Positions 2,086 through 55,962 of a DNA stretch of 64,000 nucleotides are shown here, one piece after another. The notes below the pieces were generated by a model. It worked only from the letters and a program-made list of their open reading frames with translations, made no database searches and was not told the DNA's origin. Source of the stretch: Candidatus Micrarchaeota archaeon. Its GTDB lineage: Archaea; Micrarchaeota; Micrarchaeia; Anstonellales; Anstonellaceae. The translations under genes and the position numbers were made by a program. The first letter of the stretch is position 1. Each line of letters begins with the position of its first letter. The stretch lies in the NCBI GenBank assembly GCA_021813025.1, contig JAKAME010000001.1, forward strand, positions 2,201 to 66,200. The letters are read 5' to 3'.

Positions 2086-2183
2086 GCACAGAGGATGGCT
2101 GGATTATTTATTAAATGGGAAGCGCCAAATTGTGGACGGAGCTGGCGGCAAGCGCGAATGGACGGACTGAACGGGGGATCGGC

Positions 2184-2984
2184 ATGCGCGTAATCTACAT
2201 GGCCAAGAACAAGGCCTCATGCATCGGGGGCCTGCGCTACCTGCTGGAGAAGGGCGTGGAGGTGGCGGCAGTGGTTGCCCCGCCCAAGGACGACCCTTCG
2301 ATGGGCGGGCGAAGCCTGGCCGAATTCGCCAAAAGCAGGGGGCTCAGGCTGGCGACTGACCAGGAGCTCTACGATGCGCTGGAAGGCAAGCCCTCGCCGG
2401 TGCCGAAATCGGCTCTGGAAAATGTTGATTTTGTCATTTCTTTCCTGTTCTGGAAGCGCATCCGCGCGCCCCTCATCCGCCTGCCGAAATTTGGGTGCGT
2501 CAATTTCCATCCCGCCCCCCTGCCAGATTTCCGCGGCGTGGGAGGATACAACGTGGCCATATGCGAAGGATTCCCCCAATGGGGCGCTTCAGTCCATTTT
2601 GTGGACGAGGCTCTCGATACCGGCGACATCATCCGCGTAGAGCGCTTCCCCATAGACCAGGAGGCAGAAACCGCCCTGTCTCTGGACCGCAAGACGCAGA
2701 ATGTGCTGCTTGGCATGTTCAGGGATTTCGTTGACCATGCCGTGCGCGGGGAGAAGTTCCCGCGCATGAAGCAGGGCCCGGGCAGGTATGTGAAAAAAGA
2801 GGAATTCGAGGCTTTGCGCAAAATCGGGGCGCATGAGGACGCCGCTTCCATAGGCCGCAAAATACGCGCGTTCTGGTATCCGCCCTACCCCGGCGCCACG
2901 ATTGAGGTGGACGGGAAGGCCTACACGCTTGTTGACGAGAAGATGATGAAAAAAATCGGCGAGATGGTGCACAAGGAAGATTGA
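2184..2984 (+). CDS. Formyltransferase (Fmt/ArnA-N-like), putative sugar N-formyltransferase
   Basis: Formyl-transferase fold with an N-terminal Rossmann-like region and a catalytic segment containing FHPAPLPDFRGVGGYNVAICEG. Context is amino-sugar genes. Start taken at MRVIYMAK. Confidence 0.75.
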   Translation: MRVIYMAKNKASCIGGLRYLLEKGVEVAAVVAPPKDDPSMGGRSLAEFAKSRGLRLATDQELYDALEGKPSPVPKSALENVDFVISFLFWKRIRAPLIRLPKFGCVNFHPAPLPDFRGVGGYNVAICEGFPQWGASVHFVDEALDTGDIIRVERFPIDQEAETALSLDRKTQNVLLGMFRDFVDHAVRGEKFPRMKQGPGRYVKKEEFEALRKIGAHEDAASIGRKIRAFWYPPYPGATIEVDGKAYTLVDEKMMKKIGEMVHKED

Positions 2985-3013
2985 ACAATGACTGGACTAC
3001 GTATATAATTTTT

Positions 3014-4189
3014 TTATTCGTCCATCATCTGCTTCTGGAACAGCTTGGCGTCCAGCGGAATATCGCAAAGCACTTTCACTATGCGCTCTGACGCATGGCC
3101 GTCCCCATAGGGCGAGGCGCAGCGGGCTGTGAGGGATTTGCGGAAAGACGGCGACAGGGCTTTCTTGACAGCTGATTCTATGGCCTTCCTCTCATGCCCC
3201 ACGCTGAGCACGTTGCCCCCCTGCTCCCGGCCTGCCTGCCGGGGGCCGATGTTCACCGCAGGCGTGCAGAACGAGGGGGCCTCCAAAATGGCGCTTGAAG
3301 TGTTGCCAACCATGGCCCCGCAATGCTTCATTAAGGAAAGGTAATCGGCATATGGCACGCTTGGGCAAATCCTCACGAGCGGCAGGCGCTTCCTTCTCTG
3401 CTCGATAACCTCAATCATCTGCCTGCCGCCTGCATCTGAGTTGGGGTAAATCAGCACCGCGGGCAGGCGGAGGCTTTCAAGCACGCTGAGGGTGAGGCCC
3501 ATCTGGGAGGCGGCCGCATCAGGGCTTGTGGAGAGAGGATGCTGCAGCACAAGCAGGAAAGGCTTTTTCGGCTCAAGACCGTATTTGCGGCAGATTGAGT
3601 CTTTAGAATCAAGCTTTTGCGAGAGTATGAAATCCACGGCAGGCGAGCCTGCGCGGAAGATGCGCCACTTGGCCTCGCCCATCCTCAGCAGGCGGGCCTC
3701 GCTCTTCTTTGAAACAGGGAAATGGATTTGTGCCAGCTTGGTAATCGCCCCGCGAGCATACTCGTCCAGCCCGCCGGTGGCATTGTCGCCCCCGTGCAAA
3801 TGGGCGAGGGGGATGGACATGTAGGTGGCGGTGATGGCGGCAGTGAGCATCTCGATGCGGTCGCCCAGCACAAGCACTATGTCCGGTTTGAGGCGCCTGA
3901 ATTCGGCAGCCATTCCCTCCACGCCGCGCGAGATGGAGAGGGTGCGCTCATAGGGCGTTTCTTCCTCTTCGTTCATGTTCTGGACCTCGGCATCCGCATC
4001 GAATCCGTCCGCGCGTATCTGGGCTATGGTGTGGCCAAATCTCTTGAGCAGATGCATGCCGCATACCAGAAGCTGCAATTTCAGCCTAGGCTCTTTCCGG
4101 ATTGCACGAAGCAGGGCTGTGAGGATGCCGTAGTCGGCCCGCGTCCCGGTAATCACGCAGATTTTCCTTTGCATAGTCTGCACCTGCAT
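3014..4189 (-). CDS. UDP-N-acetylglucosamine 2-epimerase (hydrolysing), NeuC/LegG-like
   Basis: KICVITGTRADYGIL N-terminus and GDRIEML...HLHGGD motifs of the NeuC family. Confidence 0.8.
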   Translation of the reverse strand: MQVQTMQRKICVITGTRADYGILTALLRAIRKEPRLKLQLLVCGMHLLKRFGHTIAQIRADGFDADAEVQNMNEEEETPYERTLSISRGVEGMAAEFRRLKPDIVLVLGDRIEMLTAAITATYMSIPLAHLHGGDNATGGLDEYARGAITKLAQIHFPVSKKSEARLLRMGEAKWRIFRAGSPAVDFILSQKLDSKDSICRKYGLEPKKPFLLVLQHPLSTSPDAAASQMGLTLSVLESLRLPAVLIYPNSDAGGRQMIEVIEQRRKRLPLVRICPSVPYADYLSLMKHCGAMVGNTSSAILEAPSFCTPAVNIGPRQAGREQGGNVLSVGHERKAIESAVKKALSPSFRKSLTARCASPYGDGHASERIVKVLCDIPLDAKLFQKQMMDE

Positions 4190-4192
4190 TGC

Positions 4193-5308
4193 TCATGCTT
4201 CTACATCCTTCTTATAGATGGGGGCCCCGCTGGCTATTGCAGTCCTGAGCCGCCGGCCAACCAGAGAATACAATTCCTCTGATTTGAATGCCCCCTCAAG
4301 CATGGGCCGTTTTGAAACCAAATCCTCCTCGTGGATTATGCCGCCTGCCTTCAGCCCGCGGGTGGCGAACACGCTTTTTCGCACCAGCTGCCGCGTTGCC
4401 AGCTCGGAAGGCACGGGTTCTTTTTCATGCCTGCCCAGCATAGCAGCATTCTTGTCCAACAGGTGCCTTGACTCTTCTTGCGCCCGGGGCGTCTTTAACT
4501 CCAGCCTGCGTATGAGGGCGACCATCTCCCCCAGCCCGCCGGGCTCCAGCGAGGCGGCATGGTCAGGGCCCTGCATCTTTCTGTCCAGGGTGAAATGCTT
4601 CTCGATTATGCAGGCGCCCAAGCCGACTGCCAGCGCCGGGGCCTCGATTCCCCTGCTGTGGTCGGAATAACCTATGGGAACCGGAAATTCCTTTTTCAGG
4701 GTCAGGATGTTGTTCAGGTTCAGGGAGGAGGGGGGGGCGGGATATTCGCTGGTGCAGTGCAGGATGGCCAGCTGGGTGCAGCCATTGGACTGCAGGAATT
4801 CGTATGCTTTTCTGACCTCCTGCAGGCTGGACATGCCTGTGGAGAGGATGACCGGCTTTCCGCTCTTGGCAGCAGCCTTGAGCAATTGCAGGTTGGTGAT
4901 TTCACCAGACGGGATTTTGTAGGCAGCCACGCCCAGCTTTTCCAAAAGCTCGAAGCTGACGAGGTCAAATGGTGAGGAGAGGAAGAGGATGCCCTTCTTT
5001 TCGCAATAGGTTTTGAGCGTTCGGTAATCCTCTGCCTTGAGCTGCAAACTCTTGAGCATCTCCTGCTGGTTGGCATGGCGCTTGTCATTGGTTTTCTGGT
5101 ATTGGGCTTTGCCGGCCAAGGGGGAGGCGAGCTGCTCAGCCACAAAAGTCTGGAACTTGACCGCGTCTGCCCCCGCCGCATGGGCCGCATCAACAAGCTG
5201 GAGCGCAAGCTTTACGCTGCCGTTGTGGTTGACGCCCGCCTCGGCTATTATGAAGCACGGATGGCCCCGCCCTATGAGCCGGCCTGCGACTGAGAACTCC
5301 TTCTTCAT
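4193..5308 (-). CDS. Nonulosonic acid synthase (NeuB/LegI/PseI family) with C-terminal SAF domain
   Basis: CFIIAEAGVNHNGS...AVKFQTF signature. The C-terminal portion is consistent with an SAF/antifreeze-like domain. Start taken at MKKEFSV. Confidence 0.85.
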   Translation of the reverse strand: MKKEFSVAGRLIGRGHPCFIIAEAGVNHNGSVKLALQLVDAAHAAGADAVKFQTFVAEQLASPLAGKAQYQKTNDKRHANQQEMLKSLQLKAEDYRTLKTYCEKKGILFLSSPFDLVSFELLEKLGVAAYKIPSGEITNLQLLKAAAKSGKPVILSTGMSSLQEVRKAYEFLQSNGCTQLAILHCTSEYPAPPSSLNLNNILTLKKEFPVPIGYSDHSRGIEAPALAVGLGACIIEKHFTLDRKMQGPDHAASLEPGGLGEMVALIRRLELKTPRAQEESRHLLDKNAAMLGRHEKEPVPSELATRQLVRKSVFATRGLKAGGIIHEEDLVSKRPMLEGAFKSEELYSLVGRRLRTAIASGAPIYKKDVEA

Positions 5309-5368
5309 GAACCTGATTTGGCGGGCCCAAGCATTAAAACCCAAGCATTTTGGGGAGGATTGGTGCGC

Positions 5369-6100
5369 CTATTTCTTCCTGCGCTCGCGGGCCCAAAACT
5401 CGGCCCACTTAAAATCCATTTCGTCGTCAATCTCGATGCTGAACTCGCCCCCCACCACAACGTAGCGGGTCTTGTCCGTGATAAAGCGCTTGAGTTGCTC
5501 GTATGCCGCAGTCTCGATGAGGTAGAACGGGCCGCCGAAGTAGGCCTTGGGCAAATCCTGATGGCGGGCGTAATACTTGTCAGGATAGAGGGCGCGCAGA
5601 AGGCCTGTGCCGTCGTCCACTAGGGTCCAGAACGGCGGGTCCTTGGCCTCGAACACCCCGAACACGCTGTCGCAGCGGGGGTCGGTGCGCAGAATCCCGA
5701 TTGCCTTGGCCACGTCCTCCCGCCGCCTGAACGGGGTGGTGGGCATGAGCAGGGCGAAGGCGAGGGGGTATTTGCCATCCTGCCTGAGCAGGCCCAGCCA
5801 GTGTTCCACCACTTCTTTCATTAGCGAGGTGTCCTTGGCAAATTCGGCAGGCCGCTCGATGGCGCGCGCGCCAGCCTTTTTCGCAAGCTCCAGAATCTCC
5901 GCATCGTCGCTGCTCACATACACCCCGCTGAACAGCCCGCTCTTTATGGCGAAATCGATTGTGTGCAGAATCAGCGGCTTGCCGTCAAGCTCGCGCAGGT
6001 TCTTGCGCGGGATTGTCTTGCTGCCCCCGCGCGCGGGGATGAGGCAGGGCATCTTCAGGCTCTCGAAACCTGGCTTGAATGCGACGGCGCTCTTTTTCAT
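5369..6100 (-). CDS. CMP-nonulosonic acid synthetase (acylneuraminate cytidylyltransferase, NeuA/LegF family)
   Basis: IPARGGSKTIPRKN motif. Start ambiguous between 6052 and 6133. Confidence 0.8.
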   Translation of the reverse strand: MKKSAVAFKPGFESLKMPCLIPARGGSKTIPRKNLRELDGKPLILHTIDFAIKSGLFSGVYVSSDDAEILELAKKAGARAIERPAEFAKDTSLMKEVVEHWLGLLRQDGKYPLAFALLMPTTPFRRREDVAKAIGILRTDPRCDSVFGVFEAKDPPFWTLVDDGTGLLRALYPDKYYARHQDLPKAYFGGPFYLIETAAYEQLKRFITDKTRYVVVGGEFSIEIDDEMDFKWAEFWARERRKK

Positions 6101-6111
6101 ACATATCACCT

Positions 6112-7551
6112 TCATAACAATCTGCTGAACCACTGCAGCATGCGCATGCCCACCTCGCCGCTTTTTTCAGGGTGGAACTGGGTGCCGAAAACATTGCCTT
6201 TGCGTATGACAGAGCAGAATTCCTGGCCCCCGTGCACCGAGCTGGCCAGCACCGAGCCCCCGTCCTCGGGCGCCGCGTAGAATGAGTGCACGAAATAGGC
6301 TTCCGAGCCGTCGGGCACGCTCTCAAGCGGAGTTCCATCCCATTGCGCCCCCTTCGGCTTTGAAATCTGGTTCCAGCCGATTTGGGGCACGCGGTAGCCC
6401 GGCTCCCTGACCTCGGGCACAGGCTTGAACGGCAGCACGCGGCCCGGTATTATGCCAAGCCCCCCATGGCGGCCGAATTCGAGACTTTCGGAGAGAAGCA
6501 GCTGCATGCCGAGGCAGATGCCGAAAAACGGCCGGCCGCTCTTCACATAGCCGCGGATGGGGGCGATGAGCCCGCGCTTTTCCAGCTCGCTCATGCCGAA
6601 CCCGAACGCCCCGTCGCCGGGAAGCACGAGCAGCTGGGCCTGCTCTATCTCGGCCGCGCTCGTCACAAGCTTGACAGGATTGCCAAGGTTGGAGAAGGCG
6701 GTGCGCACGCTCTTGAGGTTGCCCGCGCCGTAGTCGATGATGGAGACCTCTTTTGGATTCGGGGAGGGGTTGGCCTGCACGCGGGCAAGCATTGCCTTCC
6801 TTGTCGCGATGCCGGCGCGCGCCAGCTCCTCCTTCACTCCCCCTATGGTGGCGCGGTTGTAGTGCAGTATGGAGGCAAAGCAGGCGCCGTCGCATCCGGT
6901 TTTGCGCAAGCAGTCGGCCACGTCGGCCCCGTCCCGCGCCCCGCCGCAGGCGAGGACAGGGACTGAAACCGAGGATGCGATGCGGCCCAGAAGCTCGTGG
7001 TCATAGCCGGACATCGTCCCTTCCCTGTCCACCGATGTTACCAGAAGCTCGCCGGCGCCGAAGCCCGCCAGCTTTTTCGCCCATTCCAGCGCGTCAAGCC
7101 CCGTGCGCTCGCGGCCGTTGTCAACGTAGCATTCCCATTTCCCTTCATTGAATTTCGCCTCTATCGAGCCGACTATGCACTGCGAGCCGAAGATTTCTGC
7201 AGCCTTGGTAATAAGTTCCGGGTTTCTGGTGGCTGCGGTGTTGATGGCCACCTTGTCCGCCCCCGCGCGCAGGAGCGTGCGCACGTCCTCCACGCTGCGT
7301 ATGCCCCCGCCAACGGTGACAGGTATGTAGATGCCGTTGGACGCCATGTTCTCCACTATTTCGGTGAGGTTGTTGCGCTCATAGAGGCTGGCCACCGTGT
7401 CTATGTAGAGGATTTCGTCAGCTCCCTGCTCGTAATAGCGCTTGGCCAGAACGGCCGGGCTGCCTATGACGCGCAGGCCCTCGAGCTGGATGCCCTTGAC
7501 GACGTTGGGGCCCTTGATGTCCAGGCGGGGTATGATTCGCACCCGTTTCAT
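6112..7551 (-). CDS. Fused imidazole-glycerol-phosphate-synthase-like protein (HisF cyclase domain N-terminal + HisH glutaminase domain C-terminal), glycan-modifying amidotransferase paralogue
   Basis: N-terminal half [10 protein letters not shown]...VTVGGGIR is HisF-like. C-terminal half [11 protein letters not shown]...[11 protein letters not shown]...FVHSF...QFHPEKS is a HisH-like class-I glutamine amidotransferase. Lies between NeuA and the aminotransferase. Confidence 0.8.
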
Positions 7552-7702
7552 AGCACGACCTTTTAGGATAGAACAAGCCTCATGCGGCCAGCTTCATTTC
7601 AAGCGTTCTGTGGAGACCGACCTTTATAACGTTTAATCGCCGGCGATGGGCGGCTTTTTATTCATTCTATTCGAAATAAAAGCAGGATTTTGGCGTGATT
7701 GC

Positions 7703-8839
7703 ATGCCTTTTCGCATACCCCTGCACAAGCACTTTCATGACGAGGCGGACAGCGAAGCGGTCCTGTCGGTGATCCGCCGCGGCATGCACTGGGCCAACGG
7801 GCCGGAAATAGAGCAGCTTGAGAAGGAGCTGGCCGCGTATTCTGGCCTGCCGCACGCGCTTGCGTTCAGCAACGGCACCTGCGCCCTGCACGCCCTGATG
7901 CTGGCAAGCGGCATTGGGCCGGGCGACGAGGTCATCGTCCCCTCATTCACCTTCATAGCCACCGCCAACGCCGTCCTTTTCACTGGAGCCAAGCCGGTGT
8001 TTGCTGACATCGAGCCAAATACGCTGGCGCTGGACGCGCAGGACGTGCGCAGGCGCATCACCAGGAAAACAAAGGCCATCATGCCGATTCATTATGCAGG
8101 CACGCCCGCCTCGCAAATAAACGGGCTTGCGGCCCTTGCAAAGGAGAAGAATCTTCTGCTTCTGGAGGACGCTGCCGAGTCCATTGGCGCGAAGCTGGGG
8201 GGGAAGATGACAGGCGCCTTCGGAGATGCGGGCGTCTACAGCTTCTGCGCCAACAAGGTGATTACCTCGGGGGAGGGCGGGGCGGTGGTCACCCGCTCTC
8301 GCGAGATGCATGAGAAGCTCAAGCTTTTGCGCTCGCACGGGCGGGCCGAGACTGAGAACTACTTCGAGTCCAGCCAGCACATGGATTACGTCGCTCTGGG
8401 ATACAATTTCCGCATGCCCTCCATGGTGGCCGCGCTGGCCCTCTCGCAGCTGCGCAAGATAGACAAAATAATTTCCCTGCGCCGCTCGGTAGCCCAGCAT
8501 TACGGCCGCCTGCTCGCGCCCCTGAGCGGCGTCACGCTGCCCGCCGACGGCGGCGAACTCTTCAGCGTCTACCAGCTCTACACCATCCGCCTCAAGGACA
8601 GGGCCGCGCGCGACGGGCTGAAGAAGCACCTGGAGGGCGCTGGCATCATGTGCAAGGTGTATTTCGAGCCCGTGCACCTCACCCATTTTTACAAGAACGT
8701 GCTCAAATACTCGGAGCGGCTGCCGGTCACTGAGGAGACCGCCTCGCGCGTTCTCTCGCTGCCGATTTATGCTGACATGAAAAAGGAGGAAATCGAGCTG
8801 GTGTGCGGGGAAATCAAGCGCTATTTCCAGGGGGGATGA
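7703..8839 (+). CDS. DegT/DnrJ/EryC1-family PLP sugar aminotransferase (PseC/LegC-like)
   Basis: Family-typical N-terminus and a PLP-binding lysine region FCANKVITSGEGG. Start moved to MPFRIPL. Confidence 0.85.
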   Translation: MPFRIPLHKHFHDEADSEAVLSVIRRGMHWANGPEIEQLEKELAAYSGLPHALAFSNGTCALHALMLASGIGPGDEVIVPSFTFIATANAVLFTGAKPVFADIEPNTLALDAQDVRRRITRKTKAIMPIHYAGTPASQINGLAALAKEKNLLLLEDAAESIGAKLGGKMTGAFGDAGVYSFCANKVITSGEGGAVVTRSREMHEKLKLLRSHGRAETENYFESSQHMDYVALGYNFRMPSMVAALALSQLRKIDKIISLRRSVAQHYGRLLAPLSGVTLPADGGELFSVYQLYTIRLKDRAARDGLKKHLEGAGIMCKVYFEPVHLTHFYKNVLKYSERLPVTEETASRVLSLPIYADMKKEEIELVCGEIKRYFQGG

Positions 8840-8840
8840 C

Positions 8841-9881
8841 ATGGCACAGAACCTGAAAACATTCTTCGACAAAAAAACCATCCTGGTCACCGGCGGGGCC
8901 GGCTCAATCGGCAGCGAGCTGGTGCGCCACCTGGTCAAGAACTACTCGCCGCGCGCGGTGAGGGTGTTTGATTCCAACGAGACCGCGCTTTTCGAGCTTG
9001 AGCAGGAGTTCGGGGTGGGCAACAGCCCCATCCGCCTGTTCGTGGGCGACGTGCGGGACCGCGACCGCCTGCGCATGGCCATGGACGGAGCCGACCTCGT
9101 ATTCCACGCGGCCGCCCTCAAGCACGTCTATCTCAACGAGTACACGCCCGCCGAGGCCGTCAAGACCAACGTGCTGGGCACCCAGAACGTGATTGACATG
9201 GCGCTTGAGAAAAACGTCGAGCGTGTGATAAACATCTCCACAGACAAGGCAGTGGACCCCACCAGCGTGATGGGCACCACCAAGCTGCTTGCCGAGAAGC
9301 TCACCACCGCGGCCAACGGCCAGCGCGGCTCGCGGCGCACGGTGTTCGCATCCGTGCGCTTCGGCAACGTGCTTGCCTCGCGAGGCTCGGTGCTCCCGCT
9401 CTTCGTCAGCCAGATAAGGAAGGGAGGCCCGGTAACGGTGACAGACCCCAAGATGACGCGCTTCTTCATGACCATTCCGGCTGCGGTGTCGCTCATACTT
9501 GAGGCGACCGCGAGGGCGTCGGGGGGCGAGCTGTTCATACTTCGCATGCCATCGATGAAAATCGGCGACCTGGCCGAGGCGGTGGTGGAGAAATACGCCC
9601 CCCGCCTCGGGCGCAAATCATCTGACATCAAAATCAAGGTGATTGGCGCGCGCAAGGGGGAGAAGATGCACGAATCCCTGCTCACCGAGCATGAGCGCCT
9701 GTTCGCCCGCATGAGCGGCGGGCTGATTTGCATCCATCCCGAAATCCTTTCCAGGCACGGCACCGTGCCGGCGCCGGAGGGGCGGCCGGCGGACTGGGTG
9801 GAGGACGCGCTGGTCAGCAGCAGGACTAACAACCTCTCCAAGGCTGAAGTGCGCAAGATGCTGGACGAAGGCGAGGGCTAG
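8841..9881 (+). CDS. UDP-sugar 4,6-dehydratase, CapD/PseB/LegB-like (short form)
   Basis: ILVTGGAGSIGSEL Rossmann motif and MGTTKLLAEKL catalytic YxxxK-like region of the polysaccharide-biosynthesis CapD family. Confidence 0.8.
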   Translation: MAQNLKTFFDKKTILVTGGAGSIGSELVRHLVKNYSPRAVRVFDSNETALFELEQEFGVGNSPIRLFVGDVRDRDRLRMAMDGADLVFHAAALKHVYLNEYTPAEAVKTNVLGTQNVIDMALEKNVERVINISTDKAVDPTSVMGTTKLLAEKLTTAANGQRGSRRTVFASVRFGNVLASRGSVLPLFVSQIRKGGPVTVTDPKMTRFFMTIPAAVSLILEATARASGGELFILRMPSMKIGDLAEAVVEKYAPRLGRKSSDIKIKVIGARKGEKMHESLLTEHERLFARMSGGLICIHPEILSRHGTVPAPEGRPADWVEDALVSSRTNNLSKAEVRKMLDEGEG

Positions 9882-19566: not shown

Positions 19567-19638
19567 TGGACTCGGAGGGATTTGAACCCTCGACCTTTCC
19601 GTTGCAAACGGAACGCGCTACCGCTGCGCCACGAGCCC
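19567..19638 (-). tRNA. tRNA-Ala (anticodon UGC)
   Basis: Reverse complement folds as a cloverleaf GGGCTCG...anticodon loop TTTGCAA...GGTTCAAATCC, with the G3:U70 alanine identity pair. Confidence 0.9.
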
Positions 19639-24017: not shown

Positions 24018-24138
24018 AAGGGGGGGAGGGTCAGGAGGACAATCGACGGCCCTTGTTGGCCGTCGGTGCACCGGCGCGCTCGGGCGCGCCGGTTGACCAG
24101 GAACTGGGGAGGGGGGCTTGAGGCCCCCCTCCGCGGTT
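24018..24138 (+). repeat. Copy B of the same element, immediately 3' of the intron-containing tRNA
   Basis: gggggggagggtcaggagga ... ctggggaggggggcttgaggcccccctcc gcggtttggg. Confidence 0.55.
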
Positions 24139-24252
24139 TGGGCCCGAAGGGATTTGAACTCTTGACCACCTGCTCTCCTCGAGAGCTCATCCGACAATCC
24201 GGACGAATCCACATATAAGACAGGCGCTCTAACCGGGCTGAGCTACGGGCCC
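24139..24252 (-). tRNA. Intron-containing tRNA (about 39-nt intron after position 37); positional anticodon UAU, so candidate tRNA-Ile(UAU)
   Basis: Reverse complement gives GGGCCCG-TA-GCTC-AGCCCGGTTA-GAGC-G-CCTGT-CTTATA[intron]A-GCAGG-TGGTC-AAGAG-TTCAAAT-CCCTT-CGGGCCC-A. U33 and purine 37 are in place. One A-C mismatch in the T stem. Confidence 0.65.
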
Positions 24253-24349
24253 GATAAGATTAGGGAAAACGGCGTTTATAATCACTTGGCAAGATTCCCG
24301 TTCTTGTCCACTGAAGCGCTTTCTCTTTTCACAGGAAAGAAAATGACCC

Positions 24350-24388
24350 AAGACAGGCACTATGAACCGGGCTGAGCTACGGATCCGG
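24350..24388 (-). other. Degenerate duplicate of the 5' half of the adjacent tRNA (non-functional fragment)
   Basis: ccggatccgtagctcagcccggttcatagtgcctgtctt versus the tRNA 5' half gggcccgtagctcagcccggttagagcgcctgtctt. The D-stem is disrupted. Confidence 0.6.
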
Positions 24389-24415
24389 AATGAATGGCGA
24401 ATGGAACTTTGTGAA

Positions 24416-25681
24416 CTACCACGTCCTGATGGGTGCGGCTTCCGGCGTTCCATCCGAAGGATGCTCATCCGGCCGGTTCAGGGCCAGTCCACAGGTGGCC
24501 CCGCTTCCGTCCATATAGGGCAGAAGCCTCTTTCCAATGTTGATGGCACCATTAAGGTCGGCGTTGTATTGGCCGCAATTTGAGCAGACAAAACAGCCCT
24601 GGCTCTTTCGCTGGCCTTCCAGACCGCAGGCATGGCAGGTGCGGCTGGTCATTCTCTCGTCCACAGCCACAACTGGAATGCCCAATAGCCCTGCCTTGTA
24701 TTCAATCATCGACCGCAGCTTATAGAAAGGCATTGAGGAAACAATGCGGTTGAACCGCTTTCCCCTGCCTCTGGCCCCCTTTCGGATGCCACGCAAATTG
24801 CCCAAGGCAATGCAGGAATTGGAAGCCACGGCAGCATCCACAAGGTGGCGGCTGACGCAGTGGAGAATGTCGTTTACGCGAATTCTCTCCCGCGCTCCAA
24901 TCCTTTTCACTACCTTTAGCAACTTGCGCTCCTGCAGCCTCTTTCGCAGCCAGGCATGGTGCCTTCGTATTCCCCTGATTTCCCGGCCCAAGAACATGGG
25001 CTTCATCACTTGGCCTTCCCACAGCAGCACCGCAGTCGCGGGGGTCCGCTCGCCCATGTCAATGGCCAGAACAGAGGAAAAGTGAGTTTTGAGTTTGGTA
25101 GGGATTTCATAGACCAGATTGGCTATGAATTTCCCCTTTCTTTTGAACAATTTGCTTTCGCACAATTTGGCGTCGACAGGAATAGGCCGATGAGGCTTGA
25201 AGGGGACTTTGATGCCGCCCCGCTGGCCTGCTACTGGGATTCTCAAGAAGTAGAAACTCTTGCTTTTTTGCACATTAATAAGGTCATTTCTCAGACTGAG
25301 AGGATATTGGACGCCTTTCTTGATTTTCTTGTAGAAACGCAGGGCCTGCTGTTTGTGGGCAGAATAGAGAGGGGCATTCCCTCCTTGCAGAACGATTTGG
25401 AGGTTGGCATATTCCCTATCCAGAAGCTGCTGCTTGCGCTGGGTGAGCTTGATGAGGCCGCAGCGGATGGTCAGGCGCATGAGAATTTGCCGGTTTGAAA
25501 CGCCTTTAAGATTTGGAGAGGGTGACTTTCCGCTCGTCGGAGAAGGGAGAGTCTTCATCAGGCGTCTGAAGGCGCCGATTTTCACGAGAGCGAGAGCATA
25601 TAAGATTGAACTGCCCATACCTCTTTCATGTTCCACCGCCTCTTCTATCCCCGCCAGACCTGCATGCTCGCGGCCACGCAC
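24416..25681 (-). CDS. tnpB: TnpB (IS200/IS605-family OrfB, RNA-guided RuvC-like nuclease)
   Basis: RuvC-I (LAIDMGE), a zinc finger (CHACG...CSNCG) and a RuvC-III-like block (DLNGAINIGKR). No tnpA nearby. True start may be internal. Confidence 0.85.
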   Translation of the reverse strand: MRGREHAGLAGIEEAVEHERGMGSSILYALALVKIGAFRRLMKTLPSPTSGKSPSPNLKGVSNRQILMRLTIRCGLIKLTQRKQQLLDREYANLQIVLQGGNAPLYSAHKQQALRFYKKIKKGVQYPLSLRNDLINVQKSKSFYFLRIPVAGQRGGIKVPFKPHRPIPVDAKLCESKLFKRKGKFIANLVYEIPTKLKTHFSSVLAIDMGERTPATAVLLWEGQVMKPMFLGREIRGIRRHHAWLRKRLQERKLLKVVKRIGARERIRVNDILHCVSRHLVDAAVASNSCIALGNLRGIRKGARGRGKRFNRIVSSMPFYKLRSMIEYKAGLLGIPVVAVDERMTSRTCHACGLEGQRKSQGCFVCSNCGQYNADLNGAINIGKRLLPYMDGSGATCGLALNRPDEHPSDGTPEAAPIRTW

Positions 25682-29898: not shown

Positions 29899-30335
29899 GC
29901 GTGCAAGACGACGAGAAGGACCTCAACCAGATCGCCATCCAGGCGCAGCTTCTCCAGCGCCAGGGCGGCACCCTGCAGAACCAGATTGAGGTGATGCAGA
30001 CCACCCTCAACGACTTGCAGGCCACAATCGAGACCTTGGAGAACCTGTCCAAGGCAAAGGAGCTGGGCCTGCTGCCCGTGGGCTCGGGCGCATACATCAC
30101 CTGCAAGCAGGTGGACACCGATTCTGTGCTGCTCTCGGTCGGCTCAGGCCTCATAGTAACCAAGAAGGCGGCTGACGCGGCTGAAGTCCTGCGCAAGCGC
30201 TCCAAGTCCCTGCTTGAGGCGCTGGACAAGGCGAACACGAGCATGGCCAGCATCAACCAGCAGATGCAGGACCTCAACGCCAAGGCCTCGGTGCTGGCGG
30301 CGAGGATTGAGGATGTTCGGCCTTCTCAAGGATAA
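29895..30335 (+). CDS. pfdA: Prefoldin alpha subunit
   Basis: Coiled-coil/beta-hairpin/coiled-coil architecture and operon position. GTG start overlaps the rplX stop. Confidence 0.8.
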   Translation: MSVQDDEKDLNQIAIQAQLLQRQGGTLQNQIEVMQTTLNDLQATIETLENLSKAKELGLLPVGSGAYITCKQVDTDSVLLSVGSGLIVTKKAADAAEVLRKRSKSLLEALDKANTSMASINQQMQDLNAKASVLAARIEDVRPSQG

Positions 30336-31884
30336 ACTCGCCGGCTTTGTCAACAAGCTGATAAGGCGGGAGGAGGACAAGGCGCCAGTGCAGGCGCCAG
30401 TCGTTCCCTCGGAACCTGTTTCTTCTCCTCCGAAAAAGGAGGAACCTGCGCCAATCGTAAAAGTGGAGCCAAAAAAAATAGAAACTCCAAAGCCGGCTCA
30501 GAAAGTTGCGCCAATTATTTCCGCGCCAAAACCTGTTGAGAAGCCCGCGCCGGTTATTTCCATTCCCCAACCGAAGCCGGCCGAGAAAGCAGCGCCTCCT
30601 GTCTTTGTTCCAGAGCCGAAGCCCGCTCCAAAAATTGAGCCCGTTGTTTCCATGCCGGCTCAGAAGCCTGTTGAGAAACCAGCGCCTCCAACCCCTGTTT
30701 CGGAACCCAAGAAAAACATCCTTTCATCAATCTGGCCGTTTGGCGGAAAAAAGGAGGAAAAGAAAGTTCCTGCGCCGCAGCCGGCGCCTAAACCTATTCA
30801 AACAAGCTCGCCGGCTGTGATGCCTGAGCCAAAGAAAGAAGGGCCTGCCCCGGCAATGAAGACTGCCCAGACCATAGCCGCTTCCCCTGCCATCACAACT
30901 GCCGCAAAACCAATCGAAACCGCCCCTGAAATCGATGACGCAGGCTTGGCGCGCTTGGAGAAAAAATCAATGTCTGATGCCGAGCGCGAGATGAAGGTGA
31001 GGATGGGGCTTGGAAAATCCATGCTTGGCTTCATCGCGCCAACAGTAACTATAGAGGAAAACGACGTGCGCGACTTGCTTGACGAGCTTGAGCTGTCGCT
31101 GCTTGAATCAGACGTGGCTGTTGAGGTTTCAACTGAGGTGACCAAGCGCCTGCGCTCCACTCTTGTTGGCATGAAAGTAGGCAAGAATGAGATGCAGGAG
31201 GAAGTGCAGAGGCAGCTGCGGATGGTCCTGACAGATGTCATGACTTCGGCCAGCGCCTTCAACTTCCTTGAGAGAGTGCAGCAGAAGCCAAGGCCCGTGA
31301 AAATCCTTTTCGTAGGCCCAAATGGGGCTGGCAAGACCACCACAATGGCCAAAATAGCCCATCTGCTGATGGAGGCAAGGCTGAGTGTTGTATTTGCGGC
31401 AGGAGACACATTCCGTGCGGCAGCAATTGAGCAGACCGAAGTGCATGCCAAGCGCTTGGGCATACCAGTGGTCAAGTCAAAATACGGCGCAGACCCCGCC
31501 TCGGTGGCTTGGGATGCGGTGAATTACGCGAAAGCGCACCAGACAGACGTCGTGCTGATTGATTCGGCAGGCAGGCAGGACACCAACGCCAACCTGCTGG
31601 ACGAGCTGAAGAAGATAAACAGGGTAATTTCGCCTGACTTGAAAATCTACATAGGCGAGAGCATAGGAGGCCATGCTCTGATGGAGCAGGTGCGCGCATT
31701 CCATGAGGCCATTGGAATAGATGGCGCAATTCTCACCAAGCTTGACTGCGACGCAAAAGGCGGCACGGCTCTTTCACTTACGCATGCCACCGGAGTGCCC
31801 ATCCTCTACTTGGGCACGGGGCAGGGCTATGAGGATTTGGAAAAGTTCGATGCAGACAAGGTGGCTGGGCAGATACTGACGTGA
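30313..31884 (+). CDS. ftsY: Signal recognition particle receptor FtsY with long P/K/E-rich repetitive N-terminal region
   Basis: NG domain: FVGPNGAGKTTT, DTFRAAAIEQ, DSAGR, TKLD. Confidence 0.9.
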   Translation: MFGLLKDKLAGFVNKLIRREEDKAPVQAPVVPSEPVSSPPKKEEPAPIVKVEPKKIETPKPAQKVAPIISAPKPVEKPAPVISIPQPKPAEKAAPPVFVPEPKPAPKIEPVVSMPAQKPVEKPAPPTPVSEPKKNILSSIWPFGGKKEEKKVPAPQPAPKPIQTSSPAVMPEPKKEGPAPAMKTAQTIAASPAITTAAKPIETAPEIDDAGLARLEKKSMSDAEREMKVRMGLGKSMLGFIAPTVTIEENDVRDLLDELELSLLESDVAVEVSTEVTKRLRSTLVGMKVGKNEMQEEVQRQLRMVLTDVMTSASAFNFLERVQQKPRPVKILFVGPNGAGKTTTMAKIAHLLMEARLSVVFAAGDTFRAAAIEQTEVHAKRLGIPVVKSKYGADPASVAWDAVNYAKAHQTDVVLIDSAGRQDTNANLLDELKKINRVISPDLKIYIGESIGGHALMEQVRAFHEAIGIDGAILTKLDCDAKGGTALSLTHATGVPILYLGTGQGYEDLEKFDADKVAGQILT

Positions 31885-46276: not shown

Positions 46277-47122
46277 TCAATTCTTGGTGATGTGCGTGCC
46301 TGCGCCTGCGAGCAGGCTGGAAATTGGCGAGGCGACCGTGCCGTTTCCTATAATGACTTCGCGCACGCCCCCATTGATGGCTTCGATGCAGCCCATGAGC
46401 TTCTTCTTCATTCCGCCCGAGGCTGCGCCAGCACCAGCATTCTTCATGGCTGCCTCAAGCTCTGAAGCAGTAAGGCTCGGCACGAGGTCGTTGGGGAAAT
46501 TCCGATAATAGCCATCAACATCAGTGAGTGAGATGGCCATGTCTGCATGCAGGGCGGATGCAAGGGCGGCCATGAGCCTGTCGCCGTCAATATTGAGAGG
46601 CTGATTGGACTCGCCAATAGCCAAGGCCGCGAGGACGGGAGTATAACCGGCCGAAAGCAGGGTTTGCAAAAGCTCGGCATTCACCTTCTCAATCTTGCCA
46701 GTATAATCATCTCTTATGATTTTCTGCTTGCCGCTCTCATCAACAGATGTGATGATTTTCTGCCTTGCAGTAACGGCCCGGCCATCAAGGCCGGTGAGGC
46801 CGATGGCATTCACGCCAGCTGCCTGAAGCGCGCAGACGATTTGAGAATTTGCCTGCCCGCCGCAGGCCATGGCATAGAGCGAGATGATTTGCGCATCAGT
46901 GGCGCGCGACTTGATGCCGGCAGGGGAGGTGTAGAACTTGGGCGCGATGCCAAGGCGCTTGCACAGCTCGTTTGTCTGGGAGGAGCCGCCATGCGCAAGC
47001 ACGAATGAGTATTGCGAGCTGAGGCTGGCCATGTCTTGCGCAATGGAGGCAAGAGCAGCCGGATTGCCGGCTGTGGAGCCGCCAATCTTGAGCACGATGA
47101 TGGGAGTTTGAGCCATGGGCAT
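46277..47122 (-). CDS. argB: [LysW]-aminoadipate/glutamate kinase (ArgB/LysZ)
   Basis: Amino-acid kinase fold IIVLKIGGS...LAHGGS. Confidence 0.85.
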   Translation of the reverse strand: MPMAQTPIIVLKIGGSTAGNPAALASIAQDMASLSSQYSFVLAHGGSSQTNELCKRLGIAPKFYTSPAGIKSRATDAQIISLYAMACGGQANSQIVCALQAAGVNAIGLTGLDGRAVTARQKIITSVDESGKQKIIRDDYTGKIEKVNAELLQTLLSAGYTPVLAALAIGESNQPLNIDGDRLMAALASALHADMAISLTDVDGYYRNFPNDLVPSLTASELEAAMKNAGAGAASGGMKKKLMGCIEAINGGVREVIIGNGTVASPISSLLAGAGTHITKN

Positions 47123-47131
47123 CCGTCCTTT

Positions 47132-48202
47132 CTAGATTGGATGGAAGCCAGGCACCCAGAGGCCGGTCTTCTCGTCCAGTCCGTGCATCAGGTTGAAGCA
47201 CTGGATGGCAGGTCCGGCCGAGCCGCGCACCAAATTGTCGATGGCTGACATTACCACTATGCGCGGATGAGTTGCATCCAGCTCAAAGCCGATGTCTGCA
47301 AAGTTCGTGCCCGCGACTGGCTTGGGCTCCGGGTAGCGGTAGAGGGTGCCCTTGTCCTTGACCAGGCGGATGAAGGGGGAATTTGCATAGAAGGAGCGGT
47401 AGGCCTTCCAAACTTCGATGTCGGTGAGAGGCCGGACCACAGGAGCATGAATGGTGGAGAGTATTCCTCTTACCATTTCTACTGCGTGCGGTGAGAATCC
47501 AACCGACACATTGGCTGGATGCCCTGCACCAACCGCAATCTCATTGAGCTCCTGCTCCATCTCAGCCGTGTGCCTATGTCCGGTGGGCTTGTAGGCGCGC
47601 ACCGTGCCCTGCCTCTCTGGGTGATGGGTGGAAATGTCGAAGGCAGCGCCTCCGGCTGAAGAGCCGATTTTTGAGTCGGCGATAATGCGCGAGGCATCGA
47701 TTAGGCCGGCATGCACAAGAGGCGCGGTTGCAAGTATGACTGAGGAGGCCAGACAGCCCACACCAGATACCAGCTGCGCCCCCCTGATTTGCTCACGGTG
47801 CAATTCGGGCAGGCCGTAGACTGCTCTTGGCAGAAGCTCGGGGCAGGGGTGGGGCTGGTAGTACTTTTCATAGGTGCGCGCGTCATGCAGGCGGAAATCG
47901 GCCGAGAGGTCGATTATCTTCACGCCGGTTTCGATGTATTGCTTCACAAAAGGCGCAGACACCTTGTGAGGCAGGCACAGGAAAAGCGTGTCAACATCTG
48001 TGTTGAGCTGCTTGGATGACACGAATTCTGCCTGCGTAAAGCCGCGCAGATTCGGGTTGAGCTTGGTGACTGGGGTGCCGGCAAACCGCTCTGAAGTCAC
48101 TTGCGCGATTTGCATTTCTGGGTGCAGGAGCGCCCAGCGCATAAGCTCGCCGCCCGTGTAGCCGGACGCGCCGATGATGGAGACTGTATAGGCCATGTGC
48201 AT
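47132..48202 (-). CDS. argC: [LysW]-aminoadipyl/glutamyl-phosphate reductase (ArgC/LysY)
   Basis: VSIIGASGYTGGEL N-terminus. Catalytic Cys region GCLASS. Confidence 0.9.
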   Translation of the reverse strand: MHMAYTVSIIGASGYTGGELMRWALLHPEMQIAQVTSERFAGTPVTKLNPNLRGFTQAEFVSSKQLNTDVDTLFLCLPHKVSAPFVKQYIETGVKIIDLSADFRLHDARTYEKYYQPHPCPELLPRAVYGLPELHREQIRGAQLVSGVGCLASSVILATAPLVHAGLIDASRIIADSKIGSSAGGAAFDISTHHPERQGTVRAYKPTGHRHTAEMEQELNEIAVGAGHPANVSVGFSPHAVEMVRGILSTIHAPVVRPLTDIEVWKAYRSFYANSPFIRLVKDKGTLYRYPEPKPVAGTNFADIGFELDATHPRIVVMSAIDNLVRGSAGPAIQCFNLMHGLDEKTGLWVPGFHPI

Positions 48203-49056
48203 TACCTCTTTGCTGCTGAAACGAAATATTCAATCATCCTGCCCGGAATGTCGACGCCGGTTGGCGCGACTGAGTTGCGGAATTCGGTGGTGTGGTTGAC
48301 TTCGTGCACCACGAGCCCGTTCGCCGACTCCATCATGTCAACTCCATAAATTCCTTCGCCGAAAACATTTGCAGCACGAACTGCAAGGTCGCCGAGCTCG
48401 TCGGACACCTCGCACTTGCTGGCCGTGCCGCCTCTTCCCGTATTTGTTATCCACCCAGACTTCTCTGTCGAATTGCGGTAGATGGCGGCAATGCACTCAT
48501 TGCCCACCACAAAGGCGCGGATGTCGCGCCCCGGCTTGTCGATGTGCTCCTGTAGGTAATACACCTTCTGGAACGCATGCCCCATCTCCTCGCGGTTCTC
48601 AAGCTCTGCCTCCAGAGCTTCGCGGCTCTGGATTTTGTGAACCATGCGCGCCCACGAGCCGAACACCGGCTTGGTGACAAGGGGGAAGGAAAGATGCGCG
48701 GCAGCCTGGGTGGCGGATTCGGGCGAGAACGCCCCGTATGTCTTGGGCGTGGGTATTCCGGCCTTGGCCAGCAGGGTGGAGGCAAGAAACTTGTCGCCGC
48801 ACAGCTGGTGCGCCCTGTATGGATTGCACACGAACGCGCCCGCCTGCTCGAACCAGAACGAGGTGTAGAGGGTGCGGGCATAGGAGGAGGAGCGCTGGAG
48901 GATTGCGTCATAGTCTGTGTGCGGTTCGGTGAGCTCAAGCTGCAGCTCGCCATCAGCCAGGCGCTCAAGCTCCAAGCCCCTGGCCTTCGCTGCCTCGATG
49001 AGAAGCTTGTTCTCGGCCGATATGATGGTGTAGAGCAGTGCGGCACGCATAGACAA
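48202..49056 (-). CDS. lysX: Alpha-aminoadipate--LysW ligase LysX (RimK-type ATP-grasp)
   Basis: ATP-grasp fold. Adjacent to lysW. Confidence 0.85.
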   Translation of the reverse strand: MSMRAALLYTIISAENKLLIEAAKARGLELERLADGELQLELTEPHTDYDAILQRSSSYARTLYTSFWFEQAGAFVCNPYRAHQLCGDKFLASTLLAKAGIPTPKTYGAFSPESATQAAAHLSFPLVTKPVFGSWARMVHKIQSREALEAELENREEMGHAFQKVYYLQEHIDKPGRDIRAFVVGNECIAAIYRNSTEKSGWITNTGRGGTASKCEVSDELGDLAVRAANVFGEGIYGVDMMESANGLVVHEVNHTTEFRNSVAPTGVDIPGRMIEYFVSAAKR

Positions 49057-49071
49057 CAGACTCCGTTCTAC

Positions 49072-49242
49072 TTATTCGCCCCAGTCCTCGTCCACGTTGG
49101 GGGCTTTCTGCAGGAGGAGTGGTGAGACTGATTTTACCTCGAGTTTGGCCCCGCAGTCCGGGCAGGCGAGTATTTCGCCGACTTCAAGATTGGGGCGCGG
49201 CGTTATATGGCCGGCGCATTCTGGGCATTCGGACTCAGGCAT
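49072..49242 (-). CDS. lysW: Amino-group carrier protein LysW
   Basis: 56-aa MPESECPECAGHI...ACPDCGAKLEV...EDWGE with the characteristic EDWGE C-terminus. Below the ORF-track length cutoff. Confidence 0.8.
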   Translation of the reverse strand: MPESECPECAGHITPRPNLEVGEILACPDCGAKLEVKSVSPLLLQKAPNVDEDWGE

Positions 49243-49280
49243 GATTATCACCAGATTATACGACGCCGGCTTATAATAAA

Positions 49281-50529
49281 TACATAATGTTGTGAATGTA
49301 ACATATCGGCACCAACCAGAACGACCGGAATCCTACCCTCTACAAACCCACATAGGCTAGCTAGGCTTTATCTTAGTTATGAGAGCTTACCGCTTTCGCC
49401 TCTACCCCTCCAAATGGCAGGAGAAGGAGTTGCTTCATCATCTCTTTATAGAGAAAAACCTCTGGAACATGCTTCTGGAGAAAACCAAGAAAAAATATAA
49501 CGAAGAGGGGAAATTCTACTCCAAATCCGAGATTCAACTTCTGGTTAAAGACAGCGGCCTGTACTCCCAATCGGCCCAAGCCATCGCTCATCGCCTCCAC
49601 CATGCCCTCCAGGCAAAAGTTCGGGCCAAGAACAGAGGTCAGAAGTGGGGGTTCCCAAGATTCAAATCCATCGAGCGCATGAAAAGTATCTACTACCCCC
49701 AATCTGGTTTTTCTCTTGGCCAAAAGCTCAAGGTCTCACCATTCGGAGAAATTTCTATCGTTCGGCATCGGATAATCAAAGGCCGTATCAAAACCCTCAC
49801 ACTCAAGAAAGAAGCTTCTGGTAAGTGGCATGCCATTTTCATGGTTGAGGAAGAATCCGTTCCTCAAAAACCCAACAACGGTCCAACTGTTGGATTGGAT
49901 TTGGGCCTCAACCATCTGGCTACTCTTTCTAACGGGAATTTCATTGAAAATCCACGCATTTTCAGCCAGTTTGAGAACGAGCTTGCACGGACCCAACGCC
50001 ATCTGTCCAGAAAGCGCAGAGGAAGCCACAATCGAGAGGAATCTAAGAAGAAAGTGGCTCGAGTCTATGAATCTTTAGCCAACGCCAGAAAAGACTATCT
50101 TCACAAGGCAGCCAACGCCCTTCTTTCTCAATACTCTAAAGTTGCTATGGAGGATTTGAGGATACAGAAGATGGCCAGAGAGGGTCATGGTAAAAACATT
50201 CATGATGCCTCATGGGCCCTGTTCACAAATATGCTCTGCTACAAGGCTGAGAGTGCCGGTTCAGAGATTGTGTTTGTGGACCCAAGGAATACGTCAAAAG
50301 AGTGCAGTCGTTGCCATTCAATTGCCAGCAAAAGCCTGTGGGAGCGAACTCATCAATGCTCCTCTTGCGGTCTGGTGCTTGACCGGGATGTCAATGCTGC
50401 CATCAACATACTCCAACGAGCTACGGCCGGGATGGCCGGAAGTAACGCCTGTGGAGATGGAATAGAGATTCCGTCTTTGAAGCAGGAAGCCGCGCCCAGT
50501 ATGGCGTGGTGATTCACTACATAATGTTG
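49281..50529 (+). mobile_element. IS200/IS605-family (IS1341-type) tnpB-only element, lower GC, flanked by 12-bp direct repeat tacataatgttg
   Basis: Repeat copies at 49281-49292 and 50518-50529. A single TnpB gene inside. Inserted between the lysW promoter and argF. Confidence 0.65.
49379..50512 (+). CDS. tnpB: TnpB (IS605 OrfB family)
   Basis: N-terminus MRAYRFRLYPS. C-terminal zinc finger CSRCHS...CSSCG and DRDVNAAINILQRA (RuvC-III). Confidence 0.85.
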   Translation: MRAYRFRLYPSKWQEKELLHHLFIEKNLWNMLLEKTKKKYNEEGKFYSKSEIQLLVKDSGLYSQSAQAIAHRLHHALQAKVRAKNRGQKWGFPRFKSIERMKSIYYPQSGFSLGQKLKVSPFGEISIVRHRIIKGRIKTLTLKKEASGKWHAIFMVEEESVPQKPNNGPTVGLDLGLNHLATLSNGNFIENPRIFSQFENELARTQRHLSRKRRGSHNREESKKKVARVYESLANARKDYLHKAANALLSQYSKVAMEDLRIQKMAREGHGKNIHDASWALFTNMLCYKAESAGSEIVFVDPRNTSKECSRCHSIASKSLWERTHQCSSCGLVLDRDVNAAINILQRATAGMAGSNACGDGIEIPSLKQEAAPSMAW

Positions 50530-50535
50530 CGATAG

Positions 50536-51447: not shown

Positions 51448-51457
51448 GGAGACCGCT

Positions 51458-52369: not shown

Positions 52370-52372
52370 CCC

Positions 52373-52549
52373 CTACTCGCCGAAGTCCTCCTCGATTTGC
52401 GGCGCGTGGCCGATTTGCATTGGGATGAGGGAGAGCACTTCCAGGCGCGCGCCGCAGTCCGCGCAGCTTAGCAGCTGGCCGACTTCGGTCTGGGGTGCGA
52501 GGGCCTTGTGGCCGCCGCAGTCCGGGCATTCGATTTGGTTTGCGTTCAT
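52373..52549 (-). CDS. lysW: Second LysW-family carrier protein
   Basis: 58-aa MNANQIECPDCGGHK...CADCGARLEV...EEDFGE. Confidence 0.75.
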   Translation of the reverse strand: MNANQIECPDCGGHKALAPQTEVGQLLSCADCGARLEVLSLIPMQIGHAPQIEEDFGE

Positions 52550-52700
52550 GGCGTGGCACCTCTGCCGGGTTTGTTGAAAGAGATGGGCCGGCTTCGCGGA
52601 TTTAAAAGCTAGGTGAATTTGGGGACAAAATTGGTTTGAAAAGTATTAATTGAAACAAGAAGAGAGAGGTTAGAGGCTCGCGCGGATGGCGGCGGGTTTT

Positions 52701-53750: not shown

Positions 53751-53756
53751 TTCTGA

Positions 53757-54386: not shown

Positions 54387-54402
54387 AGTATCACATCCGA
54401 TG

Positions 54403-55668: not shown

Positions 55669-55674
55669 GGCGGG

Positions 55675-55944: not shown

Positions 55945-55962
55945 CTTGTGCTTTTCCGCTCC

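Follow-up and report, generated by a model that had tools for sequence, protein, structure and literature searches.

Organization of the locus

The window, which is the whole 64,000-nucleotide stretch of DNA analyzed here, contains a complete intron-bearing tRNA gene on its minus strand, upstream of pyrB. On the promoter-proximal side of this gene lie a TATA-like box, a degenerate copy of a tRNA 5' half, and an insertion sequence (IS) whose only gene is tnpB (Table 1).

Table 1. Features of the tRNA-Ile(UAU) locus in the window
Feature	Coordinates	Strand	Basis
Pre-tRNA-Ile(UAU) gene, whole, 114 nt	24139..24252	minus	Rfam RF00005, hand numbering
Exon 1, tRNA positions 1-37	24214..24252	minus	Covariance model and hand numbering; cloverleaf covariation
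Anticodon UAU, positions 34-36, between U33 and A37	24215..24217	minus	Hand numbering
Intron, 39 nt, canonical 37/38 site	24175..24213	minus	Hand numbering; compensatory changes versus L001
Intron nt -6 to -3 (GAGG), central BHB helix strand	24177..24180	minus	Pairs with 24219-24216
Exon 2, tRNA positions 38-73	24139..24174	minus	Covariance model and hand numbering
TATA-like box TTATAAA, 22 nt upstream of tRNA +1	24275..24281	minus	Read from sequence
Degenerate tRNA 5'-half copy (GGAUCCGUAGCUCAGCCCGGUUCAUAGUGCCUGUCUU)	24350..24386	minus	33-nt match, 91% identity
TnpB-only IS, ~1.19 kb	24411..25598	minus	TNB domain, empty sites, shared 3' end
tnpB, 354 aa	25480..24416	minus	Pfam Cas12f1-like TNB domain, PF07282 E = 1e-20
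CTTATA, left-flank target of the IS and 5' part of ancestral TATA box	25599..25604	minus	Empty sites CTTATAAAG

The Rfam tRNA model RF00005 matches the gene end to end (model positions 1-71 on 24252..24139) at 54.8 bits (gathering score 29), with E = 4.8e-9 over the whole window and a 40-nt insertion in the anticodon loop; the score over the full model places it in the tRNA family. The limits proposed for a tRNA in the initial annotation, which named no strand, are exact, and the good cloverleaf fit claimed there is borne out. Exon 1 comprises the acceptor 5' strand GGGCCCG, the D arm (GCUC-AGCCCGGUUA-GAGC), the 5' strand of the anticodon stem (CCUGU) and loop nucleotides CUUAUA. Exon 2 begins with A38 and continues with GCAGG, which closes the anticodon stem, a variable loop of 5 nt (UGGUC), the T arm AAGAG-UUCAAAU-CCCUU, the acceptor 3' strand CGGGCCC and the discriminator A73; CCA is not encoded. 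The variable loop is short, as in a class I body.

Splicing in silico yields a 75-mer with the 7-nt loop CUUAUAA, in which UAU is flanked by U33 and A37; the anticodon is therefore UAU, as had been read from positions 34-36, and ARAGORN calls the spliced product tRNA-Ile(tat). Between 55 and 70 of the 75 positions are identical to those of 22 other archaeal UAU tRNAs. In its default mode ARAGORN missed the gene and reported from the window only a tRNA-Ala at 19567-19638. A minimum free energy fold of the precursor recovered neither the cloverleaf nor a bulge-helix-bulge (BHB) motif and was uninformative.

The TTATAAA box is likely the promoter of the intact gene, judging from its sequence and position; similar boxes lie at an equal distance from the tRNA in the related loci L001, L129, L139 and L141. 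The space between the tRNA 3' end and pyrB is filled by three consecutive G+C-rich hairpins (24044-24132; ggaggggggc..gcccccctcc, ccggcgcgc..gcgcgccgg and cgacggcc..ggccgtcg). These are shared with L001; since they are absent from L129 and L139, they look like an inserted element of ~110 nt or a terminator array.

Relatives of the gene in other genomes

A scan of a genome collection with a pattern comprising the D arm and the UAU loop returned at least 120 loci, most of them bacterial: at least about 20 archaeal UAU tRNA genes and at least about 100 bacterial ones; the genome of the window itself was not among the matches listed. The archaeal genes listed come from Woese-, Pace-, Nano-, Aenigm-, Iain- and Micrarchaeota and from one Promethearchaeota genome, so the initial statement that a genomically encoded UAU anticodon is known in only a few lineages is out of date. 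Among the matches listed, the gene is interrupted by an intron in Woese-, Pace-, Nano-, Aenigm- and Iainarchaeota, in one Asgard genome and in the lineage of the window, and only five genes of Micrarchaeota (L054, L075, L088, L109 and L120) lack it. A metagenome scan for the same anticodon stem and intron added four AT-rich contigs of DPANN type and found no close relatives of the window gene.

When 20 spliced archaeal UAU tRNAs are folded together the consensus is the cloverleaf, and 13 of its 21 pairs change on both sides, so that all four arms are upheld by compensatory changes. Two more distant loci also retain UAU together with an intron. In L139 (PyrB 85% identical) the gene likewise precedes pyrB, at the same place as in the window, and its T stem is paired throughout; L141 (PyrB 66% identical) has a UAU gene with a 35-nt intron that carries the same AUUG loop on a different stem. 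The anticodon stem of L141 covaries with that of the window, and the anticodon and T stems covary across L139 and L141.

Several other features of these loci were observed. The Promethearchaeota gene (L123; JBGLND010000001.1, minus strand, near 6960-7100 of the locus) is tRNA-Ile(UAU)-like, with an intron of ~41 nt after CTTATA, a central BHB helix paired at three of four positions, and an unusual T loop, GGGAUCGAGGCCC, that lacks UUC. The matches listed (L005-L124) include many bacterial UAU tRNAs whose D arm is Ile-like, from CPR/Patescibacteria, Planctomycetes (Gemmataceae, Pirellulales), Chloroflexota and Ignavibacteria. Streptomyces has such genes too, among them one on a plasmid (L014, NZ_CP108729.1), and the true total is larger. 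Upstream of the L141 tRNA (locus 2108-2250, minus strand) the promoter-like sequence GGGATTATAAAGTTGATTTGA occurs twice in tandem, ~75 nt apart, a second sign of a tendency toward duplication upstream of tRNA-Ile(UAU) in this lineage. A gene for FtsY, the SRP receptor, lies within a few kb of tRNA-Ile(UAU) in L024 (Woesearchaeota) and in L075 and L120 (Micrarchaeota), and in the window it lies ~6 kb away (30214-31884). In several lineages the tRNA gene may thus sit beside the conserved archaeal L39e-L31e-eIF6-FtsY cluster.

Intron structure and splicing register

The register of the splice sites was set from the A-I-pair geometry, in which the partner of position 32 is the intron nucleotide lying 3 nt before the 3' splice site. 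In archaeal BHB motifs the cuts are made behind the second nucleotide of each 3-nt bulge. The intron of roughly 39 nt at the canonical 37/38 site that had been proposed is then exactly 39 nt long and coincides with the site of the insertion in the covariance model. From its 5' end it consists of one nucleotide of the 5' bulge, a 14-nt stem strand, the AUUG loop, a second 14-nt stem strand, four nucleotides that face positions 32-35, and two nucleotides of the 3' bulge.

A BHB can be formed at 37/38, as the initial annotation had required, but in the window it is a relaxed one. The bulges are U36-A37|U and A-G|A38, and the anticodon stem is the outer helix. In the central helix with C32-U33-U34-A35 the C-G, U.G and U-A pairs form and A35 faces an unpaired G, giving three of four pairs. 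The remainder of the intron extends the motif in the same register as one long, irregular hairpin, which is mismatched (U x U and A x C) close to its base. The strict hBHBh' form, with two 3-nt bulges, exactly four central pairs of Watson-Crick or G.U type and regular flanking helices, is therefore not present: it fails at A35 x G and at the U x U and A x C mismatches in h' beside the 5' bulge. The relaxed motif nonetheless has bulges at both sites, a largely paired central helix and the register that gives a 7-nt loop. Because the motif is relaxed, the endonuclease that cuts it is probably one of broad specificity; no gene for a splicing endonuclease was found in the 64-kb window. A box C/D guide within the intron was considered but is not supported, since inspection by eye found no D box and the C-like GGAUGAG is absent from L001.

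Among the matches listed, a canonical BHB with three or four central pairs forms in all 23 intron-bearing archaeal pre-tRNAs, and 22 of 23 relatives keep the loop CUUAUAA unchanged. The G at intron position -6, which leaves A35 unpaired in the window, recurs in L055, L057, L098, L105 and L141. The 23 pre-tRNAs were aligned with the splice sites as anchors, and slid registers and 500 shuffles served as controls. Standard pairs occupy 85.1% of cells in the canonical register, compared with 30-48% in slid registers and 71.5 ± 1.5% in shuffled alignments (0 of 500 reach the observed value), and nine pairs change on both sides, compared with four to six when the register is slid. Part of the 85% arises by construction, since exon 2 was located through the anticodon stem, which is consequently 100% paired; the register draws independent support from the central helix, at 92% pairing, and from the pairs that open the intron helix.

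Two other registers yield different products. In its intron mode (-i) ARAGORN reports tRNA-Ser(tga) i(37,39), with a 39-nt intron placed 3 nt earlier and the loop CUUGAGA. In this register the central helix forms only one or two of its four pairs in 20 of the 23 relatives, and position 37 is C or U in four of them. tRNA-Ser has a long variable arm; the variable loop here is 5 nt, and none of the compared tRNAs has a long arm. Assignment as tRNA-Ser(UGA) was rejected on both the variable arm and the BHB.

An enumeration of strict BHB motifs ranks first in the window a register in which the 5' site moves by -1 and the 3' site by +1, with four of four central pairs and a 6-bp outer helix. The excised piece is then 41 nt long, and ARAGORN calls the 73-nt product 'tRNA-Stop(UUA)'. 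Four of four central pairs also form in 21 of the 23 relatives, a perfect helix made possible by U31, which is available as a partner for the conserved intron A at -2. The product, however, has a 5-nt loop, or a 7-nt loop with C33; the helix on the intron side is missing from 16 of the 23 relatives, and L001 has lost it; and A38, which would be intronic, is conserved in 22 of 23. Moreover, in ARMAN-2, the one homologue examined by experiment, the cleavage fragments have the sizes that canonical cuts predict (PMC3239211). The suggestion that the intron lies at a non-canonical site with a different anticodon is not borne out: the covariance model places the insertion at 37/38, and a BHB forms there.

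Allelic variation

Contigs that encode an identical PyrB carry the same tRNA gene; overall it recurs in eight other contigs from close relatives and in two from more distant ones. Its exons are identical in L001-L004 and L129-L131, of which L001, L004 and L129 carry a second allele. Compared with the L001/L129 allele, the window shows no difference over the 75 exon positions and six over the 39 of the intron (Fisher p = 0.0012). Five of these are located in three hairpin pairs and preserve the pairing (C-G to U-A, U-A to C-G, and G.U to G-C). The sixth is intron position -6, which is G in the window and U in L001/L129, where A35-U completes four of four central pairs; the sister allele thus has the full central helix that the window lacks.

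Both alleles also have an A52.C62 mismatch in the T stem (24159-24163 / 24147-24151). Neither L139 nor L141 has it, and an A.C at this pair is unique in the set of 20 spliced archaeal UAU tRNAs; the T arm of L105 is the same as that of the window except for G52. Since the mismatch is common to both alleles it appears to be tolerated. That the exons are identical although 15% of intron positions have changed, with compensation, indicates that the exons, and the mismatch with them, are under purifying selection.

The TnpB element and the decayed tRNA copy

The IS upstream of the tRNA belongs with the TnpB-only elements of the IS200/IS605 type, having a TNB/RuvC region, conserved ends and a precise empty site. 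TnpB relatives at 62-85% identity share a common 3' end, ...GGTAGTTCAC, after which the sequences diverge completely. Six copies or relatives of the element have this conserved end and a left-end hairpin, and all are preceded by (C/T)TATA, from which we place the element at about 25598-24411. Like known elements of this kind it has a single tnpB with a TNB domain and is inserted 3' of a short target, and its conserved 3' end overlaps the end of tnpB, as expected for an omega-RNA scaffold. It differs in that its apparent target, Y-TATA, coincides with an archaeal TATA box. We infer an omega-RNA and a TAM from these ends: the putative omega-RNA would finish in ...GGUAGUUCAC and be followed by a guide beginning AAGUUCCAUUCGCC. 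The target or TAM may coincide both with archaeal TATA boxes and with the CTTATA of the tRNA's own anticodon loop.

Comparison with the empty sites in L001 and L129 shows that the element inserted directly after the CTTATA of the TATA box of an upstream tRNA copy (CTTATA|AAG). Because the apparent Y-TATA target coincides with an archaeal TATA box, this insertion cut the tRNA gene at that position off from its promoter. The sequence that follows the right end of the IS aligns with the spacer of the empty site and then with the tRNA 5' half, and the degenerate copy occupies the promoter-proximal position held by the single tRNA gene in the IS-free alleles (L001, L129). The segment at 24386-24350 is thus a decayed copy at the ancestral position. 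The intact gene lies 87 nt downstream and has its own TTATAAA box. The segment downstream of tnpB matches no Rfam family and folds no better than shuffled sequence. Two other readings of it, as part of the omega-RNA or as the result of an IS right end abutting the tRNA +1, were rejected on the position of the ...GGTAGTTCAC end in relatives.

One further contig, L130 (ENA ERZ27237554 k141_1776889, 800-2500), has the tnpB 3' end, pseudo-tRNA, tRNA and pyrB arranged as in the window, with an IS left end that differs in sequence and adjoins Rpb7/Spt4 rather than the flavin reductase gene. Either two IS copies have recombined, or the assembly is chimeric across the repeat. The window also contains a second, unrelated tnpB (49379-50512, plus strand, 377 aa; HTH_OrfB_IS605, OrfB_IS605 and TNB domains), which adjoins an ornithine/aspartate carbamoyltransferase gene.

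Affinity of the organism and decoding of AUA

Clusters at 90% identity or above carry one NCBI label, 'Candidatus Marsarchaeota archaeon', which derives from a single metagenome-assembled genome (MAG). The named relatives of PyrB at 58-64% identity belong to Micrarchaeota families or Iainarchaeum, with no Thermoproteota among them, and an exhaustive search with PheRS-beta gives as nearest named sequences Candidatus Burarchaeum (42%) and 'Micrarchaeota archaeon' (41%), followed by Bathyarchaeota (38%). A local tblastn of window proteins against the loci from the scan did not refine the placement. The label of the MAG therefore conflicts with the nearest relatives of both proteins, which are Micrarchaeota (Burarchaeum, Anstonellaceae, Gugararchaeum). 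As PyrB and PheRS-beta contradict it, we provisionally treat the organism as related to Micrarchaeota (DPANN). The window has a G+C content of 58-60% and encodes nonulosonic-acid synthesis (about 2115-9881), LysX-type lysine/arginine synthesis together with leucine-type enzymes (about 46277-57045), and transketolase, a gene content that is metabolically rich for a DPANN genome.

AUA had been expected to be rare in a genome of 60% GC. In 49 crude open reading frames it accounts for 231 of 17,889 codons (12.9 per 1000) and 24% of isoleucine codons at roughly 58-60% GC, contrary to that expectation. With AUA this frequent a decoder for it is needed. Pfam and NCBIfam scans found no match to TiaS (agmatidine synthetase) in the window (~64 kb) or in related loci (~60 kb), and tblastn with a query 100% identical to PDB 4RVZ/3AMT likewise found none in either. 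Neither tiaS nor a tRNA-Ile(CAU) gene was found within the window and the fetched loci. A TiaS search of a protein collection returned only Archaeoglobi among its best 120 matches and is uninformative for this lineage.

Taken together, the sequence evidence makes it very probable that this is a functional gene for a minor tRNA-Ile with a genomically encoded UAU anticodon that reads AUA. Transcription would start from the TATA-like box, the archaeal splicing endonuclease would cut the precursor at both bulges, and the halves would be ligated and CCA added. A37 would probably be converted to t6A and the tRNA charged by IleRS, after which it would decode AUA, 1.3% of codons. By analogy with ARMAN, Korarchaeum and Nanoarchaeum, this tRNA likely replaces the system of tRNA-Ile2(CAU) and TiaS. 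That it is the sole decoder of AUA is an extrapolation from ~64 kb of the window and ~60 kb of related loci, over which the absence of the alternative was checked.

We consider unlikely the two-part proposal that a Thermoproteota lineage similar to Marsarchaeota or Tardisphaerales gave up agmatidine independently of DPANN and Korarchaeota and that, separately, the intron that pairs with the anticodon has been kept almost universally in archaeal tRNA-Ile(UAU) genes for an intron-dependent modification of U34 and U36, as in eukaryotes. The chance seems rather small, too, that the tRNA is functional but supplementary, in a genome that also keeps tRNA-Ile2(CAU) and TiaS. Were the 'Marsarchaeota' label right, agmatidine would be expected, as in most relatives within Thermoproteota; the two markers nevertheless put the organism nearest Micrarchaeota, and TiaS was not found in ~125 kb from the lineage of the window. 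In ARMAN-2, -4 and -5, moreover, the UAU tRNA accompanies the absence of both tiaS and the CAU tRNA-Ile2 (PMC3239211), and it likewise occurs in archaea without a tiaS homologue, as cited in PMC3575796.

Some features of the locus could instead point to a decaying or silent relic: the T-stem mismatch found in no other relative, the A x G in the central BHB helix, the IS 160 bp upstream and the clearly decayed copy at 97 bp upstream. Yet the exons are the same in two alleles whose introns have diverged with compensation, the A35 x G recurs in five other lineages, the intact copy retains its TATA-like box at the normal distance, and the frequent AUA codons need a decoder. The decayed copy itself shows what real erosion looks like at this locus, and we regard a relic as very improbable. 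Least credible of all, given the comparison of registers above, is an intron in another register and a mature anticodon that is not UAU.

Comparison with known systems

The window gene is a further case of a rare and already documented mode of AUA decoding; the kind is a known one because ARMAN-2, itself a Micrarchaeon, has been published with the same arrangement. In both, the anticodon UAU is genomic and the 37/38 site holds an intron within a BHB motif (Fujishima et al. 2011, PMC3239211). That of ARMAN-2 measures 25 nt and lies in a strict hBHBh' motif, whereas that of the window is 39 nt and relaxed, with A x G and two mismatches in h'. The ARMAN-2 precursor was cut in vitro by its own broad-specificity epsilon2 endonuclease (PMC3239211), while the window gene is known from its sequence. 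Korarchaeum cryptofilum and Nanoarchaeum equitans, which belong to other phyla, also have tRNA-Ile(UAU) genes (PMC6000648, PMC3575796), and the K. cryptofilum gene, like that of the window, has an intron (PMC6000648); these two are likened here by description rather than by sequence.

The locus therefore adds one more lineage, of high G+C content, fairly rich metabolism and probable relationship to Micrarchaeota, to the archaea that appear to read AUA with a genomic UAU tRNA in place of agmatidine, and the scan reveals them to be common among DPANN genomes now available, with at least one Asgard genome having such a gene as well. It also calls for caution in annotation, since ARAGORN misses the gene by default and mis-assigns it as Ser(UGA) in intron mode. 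The biological question is how an archaeal tRNA with U34 avoids reading AUG as isoleucine. The window gene is one more candidate for tRNA mass spectrometry, and alone it does not make this question newly testable.

The canonical system of tRNA-Ile2(CAU) and TiaS performs the same task of reading AUA, and not AUG, as isoleucine. There C34 is converted to agmatidine, whereas the window gene encodes U34 and TiaS was not found in the available sequence. Eukaryotic tRNA-Ile(UAU) resembles the window gene in its UAU and in its intron, which follows position 37 and forms base pairs with the anticodon. In yeast this intron is needed for formation of pseudouridine at positions 34 and 36 of tRNA-Ile(UAU). 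AUG could be avoided in the window lineage through a modified anticodon similar to this eukaryotic pseudouridine-A-pseudouridine.

Alternatively, U34 could be unmodified, with IleRS and the ribosome adapted to it, as in Mycoplasma mobile. The tRNA-Ile2(UAU) of M. mobile resembles that of the window in that UAU replaces a system based on a modified cytidine, and its A37 is t6A (PMC3575796). It differs in being bacterial and intronless, and in that its U34 has been shown to be unmodified, with adaptation of both IleRS, at Arg865, and the ribosome (PMC3575796).
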